NCBI GenBank assembly: GCA_964016885.1
Contig: OZ024750.1
Coordinates: 10,602,001 to 10,666,000, forward strand
Origin: Eledone cirrhosa
Taxonomy: Eukaryota
DNA length: 64,000 nt
Reading direction: 5' to 3'
Every line of letters begins with the position of its first letter. Positions within the stretch are counted from its first letter, which is position 1. Of this stretch, positions 33,994-34,198 are shown in pieces. The notes beneath the pieces are model-generated. The model was given only the letters and a program-made list of their open reading frames with translations. It was not told where the DNA came from and ran no database searches. Position numbers and translations under genes: made by a program.

Positions 33994-34198
33994 GGAACCA
34001 GTAAGACCCCGACAGCTGAGCTCAAGCCGTTTCGACGGCTAATACTGGACTGTATTAGAGTCCAGTATTAGCCGTCGAAACGGCTTGAGCTCAGCTGTCG
34101 GGGTCTTACTGGTTCCTATTACCCACTCTACTACCTCAAGTATTGAGTACTTTGGTGCGTTATGGTCCACCTGGTTCCTTACCACATTTCCTTCGTTA
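33992..34198 (+). mobile_element. Family A tail + fold-back element, copy 3
   Basis: Palindrome 33992-34118 (TAGGAACCAGTAAGACCCC...GGGGTCTTACTGGTTCCTA), then tail ending CCTTCGTTA into (TA)n. Confidence 0.9.

Follow-up and report, generated by a model that had tools for sequence, protein, structure and literature searches.

Penelope-like elements (PLEs) of the Hydra clade, as described by Craig et al. 2021 (PMC8557442), encode a protein with a C-terminal endonuclease and the motifs DKT, RWK-like, CxCx5C, CxxC and CxH, use (TA)n as target, carry a sense-strand hammerhead about 100–200 nt from the 3′ end, and leave tailed as well as inverted 5′-truncated copies. The Hydra hammerheads in File S2 of that paper all have the core CUGANGA, and the loop II sizes given there are 3–10 nt. 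A compensatory swap of the C3-G8 pair to U3-A8 was described in the terminal repeat of the Schistosoma PLE Cercyon (Cervera and De la Pena 2014, PMC4209133), and U3-A8 hammerheads are reported to be active in vitro (Perreault et al. 2011, PMC3088659); those covered by the two accounts have a long stem II with G10.1-C11.1, are minimal and need dimers. For the Poseidon element PAc of Anolis, Frangieh et al. 2024 (PMC11167929) report that the purified protein cuts and extends both strands of an AT-rich target, that two internal RT start sites define the tail, and that the hammerhead is not needed for insertion. In LINE-1, twin priming gives rise to inversions through two primings, and ends that reach the RNA cap carry an extra untemplated G, according to PMC4859970. 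The role of the PLE hammerhead and the origin of the inverted and tandem PLE insertions are open questions in the accounts of PMC8557442 and PMC11167929.

Hammerheads in PLEs, cores with U3-A8 and truncated copies in inverted orientation have all been published before. What is new, within the literature searched, is a family of Hydra type whose hammerhead has a U3-A8 core and a large loop, a break hotspot inside that hammerhead, and a genomic case for two independent cDNAs; no description of this family or its hotspot was found in that literature. The family is young and intact, and its insertion ends on record number some 70,000, which permits a genomic test of two cDNAs against snap-back, and the sharp break site within the ribozyme makes the distinction between a promoter and a block experimentally simple. 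Searches limited to CUGANGA, as well as Rfam, overlook the hammerhead of this very abundant family.

The feature under study is a hairpin at 33989–34198 of the window (the whole stretch of 64,000 nucleotides from Eledone cirrhosa that was analysed), and it is one of tens of thousands of stub insertions of a young Penelope-like element. Element positions are given as coordinates of the full copy L061, with a window position equal to the L061 position plus 28967. The hairpin is flanked by (TA)n target repeats, to which no strand is assigned, on the left (33943–33990) and on the right (34197–34217). The sense arm (34059–34198, plus strand), which the preliminary description had started at 34061, is a tailed, 5′-truncated 3′ end of the element, identical to L061 5092–5231 at 138 of 140 positions. 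The mirror arm (33989–34051, minus strand) is a tail-less inverted copy of element positions 5092–5154 and the exact reverse complement of 34059–34121 (63/63). Both arms begin at the A of a conserved TTAGTYC motif (34059–34063, plus strand), the putative transcription start, where the modal breaks 5092–5093 lie. Between the arms is a 7-nt apex insert (34052–34058, plus strand) that duplicates arm bases 34065–34071, and its last letter, G, stands directly before the first element base. Similar templated inserts are also present among the listed junctions of other copies. The 79-nt tail (34120–34198, plus strand) is found on only one arm; the mirror arm ends at the tail-less start site. The same holds for other copies, whose arms have their 3′ ends at one of two fixed positions separated by 79 nt, near 5230 (48 of 109 sampled arms) or 5150 (41 of 109).

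The sense arm presents, in order, the 3′ strand of hammerhead stem II, TAGCCGTC (34069–34076, plus strand), the G12-A15.1 core with stem III, its palindromic loop and the GUC triplet (34077–34099, plus strand), and the 3′ strand of stem I, GGGGT (34100–34104, plus strand), followed by the tail. Within the core segment, GAAA occupies 34077–34080, stem III consists of six pairs (34080–34085 with 34093–34098, one of them G-U) closed by the loop TGAGCTC, and GTC ends at 34099, after which cleavage is predicted. The partners of the two outer strands, L061 5056–5064 for stem II and 5044–5048 for stem I, are missing from the window copy. This is the reading given in the preliminary description, which took the arm for the 3′ half of a type I hammerhead of a PLE terminal repeat with the mirror copy in place of the 5′ half, and all its elements were found, the 5′ half being present in long copies. 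None of 2000 dinucleotide shuffles of the sense arm produced the GAAA–stem III–UH arrangement, for a 3′-half descriptor that was written after the motif had been seen. No complete hammerhead was matched by the descriptor on either strand of the window copy, its core and stems I and II being incomplete in cis, and Rfam gave no hammerhead among the 150 of 398 matches listed for the window. The window copy is predicted to fold as a perfect 63-bp hairpin. Complementation in trans by such fold-back copies, an idea of the preliminary description, is therefore unlikely, as the half ribozyme would be locked in the 63-bp duplex. As a dead stub, the hairpin belongs to an element type that is already known, and stubs of this sort are in themselves ordinary dead insertions.

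The parent element is represented by L061, a full copy in which an inverted repeat and an ORF of 721 aa are accompanied by a 3′ region of 1.3 kb and by the tail. The single ORF encodes an RT with YRDDG and, at its C terminus, a GIY-YIG endonuclease (VIY...YIG), together with RWR, SDKT, CNCPDRSIC (CxCx5C), CNLC (CxxC) and CKH (CxH), where RWR is a variant of RWK common to homologs. It gave no Pfam match; 2032 homologs were found, 120 of which are listed at 38–53% identity. All 150 scored matches to the endonuclease are 100% identical and tandem arrays of the element have a period of 3531 nt, from which we conclude that the family is young. The insertions of the family lie in (TA)n. By its protein motifs and a comparison by eye, the family would be of Hydra type. 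The monomer, at about 3.5 kb (period 3531), is longer than the <3 kb general for the Hydra clade, a length that is a tendency in the source paper (PMC8557442). Stem III has 6 bp and the tail 79 nt here, and the protein and hammerhead differ, as compared by eye, from those of Hydra-1_Obim as given there. Short non-coding tandem units with complete hammerheads, as in non-LTR retrozymes, are not what is found here: the copies are dispersed halves and the tandem units are 3.5-kb coding monomers. One array (L137–L138, G000:C1:437198500-437218300) has more than four head-to-tail monomers with one loop II variant common to all and ends at the tail-less site. At L061:6882-8777 (minus strand) there is a 631-aa ORF that matches RVT_1 weakly and has a YIG motif at its C-terminal end; it likely belongs to an unrelated PLE.

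The 5′ half that the stub lacks is found in long copies, at a distance of about 50 nt upstream from the stem II strand. There, ACCCC, TTGAGAA and GATCGGCTA complete stem I, a core of UUGANAA and stem II, respectively, leaving a loop II of 37 nt, in contrast to the CUGANGA cores and short loops of the published Hydra hammerheads. Different from the minimal U3-A8 hammerheads of the two earlier accounts (PMC4209133, PMC3088659), the one predicted here combines a full stem III, closed by a palindromic loop, with a loop II that is large and structured, and belongs to a different PLE clade; it shares with them the 3-8 swap in a terminal repeat and the long stem II with G10.1-C11.1. Relative to Poseidon PAc as presented in PMC11167929, it lies entirely upstream of the ATG. 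The minimum free energy (MFE) structure of L061 5030–5160 is a three-way hammerhead junction, and the hammerhead descriptor, which missed the positive control L063 (where stem III is minimal), gave one match in the sense monomer and none in shuffles (0/2000 and 0/300). The 5′ half and the MFE structure overturned the view that the family has no hammerhead at all. The core residues U4 G5 A6, A9, G12 A13 A14, A15.1-U16.1 and H17 are present in long copies, and N7 can be any of the four bases across subfamilies. In an alignment of 40 copies, 90.6% of cells are paired. Taken as a prediction, a complete type I hammerhead with a U3-A8 core is carried by the long copies.

An intact CTGANGA core, which the preliminary description expected upstream of stem II, is absent from the full element (L061 545–5231) on both strands and from all 40 native upstream contexts; in the terminal repeat the U3-A8 variant occupies the position of a canonical CUGANGA hammerhead. 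Among 7,664 cores, 5,769 are U3-A8, 1,795 are C3.A8 and 100 have G8, of which 21 are canonical C3-G8. These 21 amount to about 1% of the C3 subfamily and therefore fit scattered point mutation. A search for CTGANGA 5–35 nt upstream returned 34 matches, and the 30 inspected in context were all junction or flank sequence, the gap being too short. With a gap of 36–62 nt, 111 matches were obtained, and about ten of the 100 listed are native. The search proposed at the outset would thus have missed the U3-A8 core that long copies carry.

Between the two clades, stem I is identical on each side (5/5), the stem III region at 17 of 19 positions, and the 5′ core differs at N7 only, with U3-A8 kept in both clades while loop II is identical at just 10 of 27 positions. 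In stem II three pairs changed on both sides, all on one branch and one of them fixed by the search pattern; the double changes outside the search patterns, at columns 33-71 and 34-70, are between clades. No compensatory change was seen in stems I and III in the alignment of 40 copies, and the number of doubly changed pairs was no better than in shuffles (409/500). The stability of the hammerhead segment is not unusual (z −0.09), all three stems reach a probability of 0.5 in only 7 of 14 copies, and Rfam gave no hammerhead on L061 at E up to 10. The RF00163 matches that were inspected, 15 out of 18, belong to another family. A rival hairpin over GAAA is the MFE structure of 4 of 14 copies; it was rejected, as it shows no double change and is weaker in clade B. 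By eye, the loop II motif may pair 5′ of stem I (L061:5037-5043 with 5090-5097), a possible pseudoknot with up to 7 pairs in clade B and fewer in clade A.

Is this hammerhead a working ribozyme? Two subfamilies were amplified with an altered 3-8 pair, namely C3.A8 (L176, L193, L194, L334; 1,795 places), in which it is broken, and the small U3.G8 subfamily (L183, L300, L312, L313), in which it is a wobble. In the one copy of each that was folded, the hammerhead fold was not favoured. Their success, the mere 2 of 109 sampled arms that end at the cleavage site, and the insertion in vitro of ribozyme mutants (PMC11167929) would all suit a hammerhead that is catalytically inactive or dispensable and that the element retains as an RNA handle for its protein, a reading compatible with either account of the hotspot given below. 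We regard it as a real possibility that falls short of probable, because U3-A8 persists in both clades although loop II diverged, the 5′ core varies between clades at N7 alone, and U3-A8 hammerheads elsewhere are active in vitro according to PMC3088659.

The 3′ half is far more abundant than the 5′ half. A 16-letter pattern for the former gave 73,063 matches in the 3.0-Gb genome; about 73,000 3′ halves compare with about 7,700 5′ halves, so that the 5′ half is retained by about 10% of 3′ halves, a rough figure given the different lengths of the patterns. Contig depth in run X1, which may be the source sample, drops 25-fold from 5104–5115 to 5068–5079, although this is not copy number. A sample of 109 arms was drawn from random stretches, bystander flanks and the window. 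Of these, 61 stop within 5085–5102, an 18-nt stretch of loop II, 13 reach further and 35 end earlier; 61 of the 74 arms reaching this hotspot thus stop in it. The breaks are commonest at 5092–5093 and have a sharp upstream edge at 5085. On contig 1, 19 of the first 100 matches extend beyond the core, and 78 have their end no more than 17 nt from 5102. The breaks therefore cluster in loop II, as the preliminary description had anticipated. Its placement of the apex in the stem II loop holds as well, with the qualification that the break lies in the 3′ part of the 37-nt loop and not at its centre, the 5′ strand of stem II being about 30 nt further upstream in long copies. The short hairpins exceed long copies roughly tenfold, and one might take them for a non-autonomous element in its own right that is copied as a unit, but this is hardly credible: the apexes differ between copies, and the short copies of each subfamily match its own long copies.

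A second (TA)n-targeting family (L062-L076, L446-L475) has a compact canonical hammerhead and also forms mirror arms. It has about 2,400 exact core copies and keeps the hammerhead whole in 2,416 against 2,978 cases, about 81%, from which it follows that the loss at loop II is not general to hammerheads. Relatives of the protein of the L061 ORF are encoded in some of its flanks.

How does the mirror arm arise? It was initially proposed that a single cDNA stalls at stem II, snaps back and copies the mirror arm. Several features of short copies agree with this proposal: the A5099T variant is common to both arms of the window copy, the arms agree with each other within each short copy, and the apex inserts derive from arm sequence. 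Shared variants, however, are equally expected from one RNA template. A snap-back product cannot outreach its template, and among 17 long head-to-head pairs (L095 being left out because its tailed arm continues into a monomer) 10 have the longer reach on the tailed arm and 5 on the tail-less arm, with 2 equal. Two cDNAs primed on opposite strands can produce a longer tail-less arm, and a purified PLE protein is indeed reported to cut both strands and extend them from two start sites (PMC11167929). In four of the five pairs with a longer tail-less arm both outer ends were confirmed; the excess is 393 to 2,195 nt in L079, L104 and L133, and the tail-less arm also reaches further in the C19 array. 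Snap-back moreover gives no account of a mirror that ends at the second fixed site, and when RT stops it is already past the 3′ strand of stem II. The genomic evidence hence favours two independent cDNAs over snap-back, which is largely refuted as a general route and, with very little probability left to it, might still apply to a minority of the short copies. Junctions show 1–6 nt overlaps or inserts copied from an arm, and the arms may be joined by microhomology-mediated repair or RT template jumps. As compared with LINE-1 twin priming (PMC4859970), both cDNAs here start near the same RNA end and yield a mirror duplication rather than an internal inversion. A break hotspot in the hammerhead and a test of the inverted product are not described in the account of Poseidon PAc available in PMC11167929.

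The remaining question is what ends the cDNAs in loop II. Run-off at the ribozyme cleavage site was rejected, given the scarcity of arms ending there. A constant stall at the fold, also part of the initial proposal, was rejected as well. In 26 loci with a full ORF, the repeat is joined to the 5′ UTR in 24, of which 23 run past the core and one ends in the tail; no arm that meets the fold a second time ends in the hotspot (0/23 arms, 0/24 loci), as against 61 of 74 at the first encounter (Fisher p 2e-13), with the reservation that the first sample mixed subfamilies and the second held the youngest only.

We consider it somewhat probable that the stub consists of two cDNAs primed on both (TA)n strands, run off the RNA 5′ end in loop II and joined head to head, the parent being a Hydra-type PLE with the predicted U3-A8 hammerhead. 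This account incorporates several direct observations: the element identity, the 5′ half in long copies, the two fixed 3′ ends, the independent reach of the arms and the hotspot. An internal promoter would start transcription at about 5088–5092, and a half hammerhead would stand at the beginning of the mRNA, with the two sites at which RT starts coming after it. RT starting at the cap-proximal copy would yield cDNAs of 60 and 140 nt, which end joining via microhomology and templated inserts would fuse, and long or tandem copies would come from templates without such a 5′ end, either read-through multimers or circles.

An RNA 5′ end in loop II, with a presumptive transcription start, is favoured over a block on the basis of the sharp edge, the motif at the modal-break A, an excess of G, and precedents. 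TTAGTYC, which we take to be initiator-like, is identical between clades at 6 of 7 positions, against 10 of 27 for loop II. A non-native G precedes A5092 in 5,420 places and an A in 890, G stands before 5088 and 5089 in only 254 and 230 places, and among target-joined ends a non-native G was counted by hand in 6 of 12 against 1 of 15 (p 0.02). The precedents are the extra G of LINE-1 and the internal promoter within the pLTR of the D. virilis Penelope (PMC2377424). The G excess is confounded, in that C is nearly as common before A5092 (4,576) and G is often the last letter of mirror ends and templated inserts; before G5093, G still stands in 1,753 places against 5,612 for C or T. A second capped start at 5088 was discarded on the count of 254. 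A single start site is excluded, because 68 of 100 listed arms reaching A5092 keep the native T before it, many being 1–7 nt longer (hand count). Arms of full-monomer length that end at the hotspot are rare (L061 only; 0/24 loci), which weakens a simple promoter model, since the model predicts them.

The main rival is a block that would act on the initiating repeat alone, exerted by an element protein or by a protein-stabilised tertiary contact of stem I and loop II, with later folds unbound and passed and the two cDNAs joined in the same manner. Such a block would account for the contrast between first and second encounters, the spread of ends over 5085–5102 and the scarcity of full-monomer arms with hotspot ends; the hotspot spans the 3′ strand of a predicted inner hairpin, and a PLE hammerhead requires the protein for in vitro cleavage according to PMC11167929. 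It leaves the peak of extra G at A5092 unexplained, and the family with the canonical hammerhead has no such loss. RT stalls are expected at the base of a hairpin, but the inner hairpin has the edge at its top. On balance we find the block rather doubtful.

An extension of the RNA 5′ end account, unlikely in our view, is that the mRNA starts inside the ribozyme, so that the capped half hammerhead cannot cut and the complete 3′ hammerhead trims; the freed 5′ half would then pair with the cap-proximal half, cut and close a one-monomer circle, with linear RNA giving the stubs of 60/140 nt and circles the long and tandem copies. If this is true, the ribozyme would be a switch between a template for translation and one for transposition.

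Including the hairpin at 33989–34198, the window contains nine insertions of this kind. According to the window survey, sister fold-back insertions lie at 5537–5731 (minus strand), 36342–36542 (plus) and 43272–43466 (minus), and a further one, with its sense arm broken at about 5127, at 56825–57005 (minus). A clade-B fold-back insertion is found at 51997–52200 (plus) and an older clade-B-like one at 36635–36787 (minus), as well as a sister truncated insertion without a mirror at 23618–23761 (minus) and a short insertion with its apex close to the predicted cleavage site at 58375–58460 (plus). A degenerate clade-B-like remnant of the same 3′ half lies at 34455–34505, 260 nt from the hairpin. 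Three CTGANGA...GAAA motifs in the window, at 33844–33900 (plus), 43523–43570 (plus) and 26900–26948 (minus), appear by eye to be hammerheads of other families; that at 26948 is similar to the Hydra pattern in the literature.
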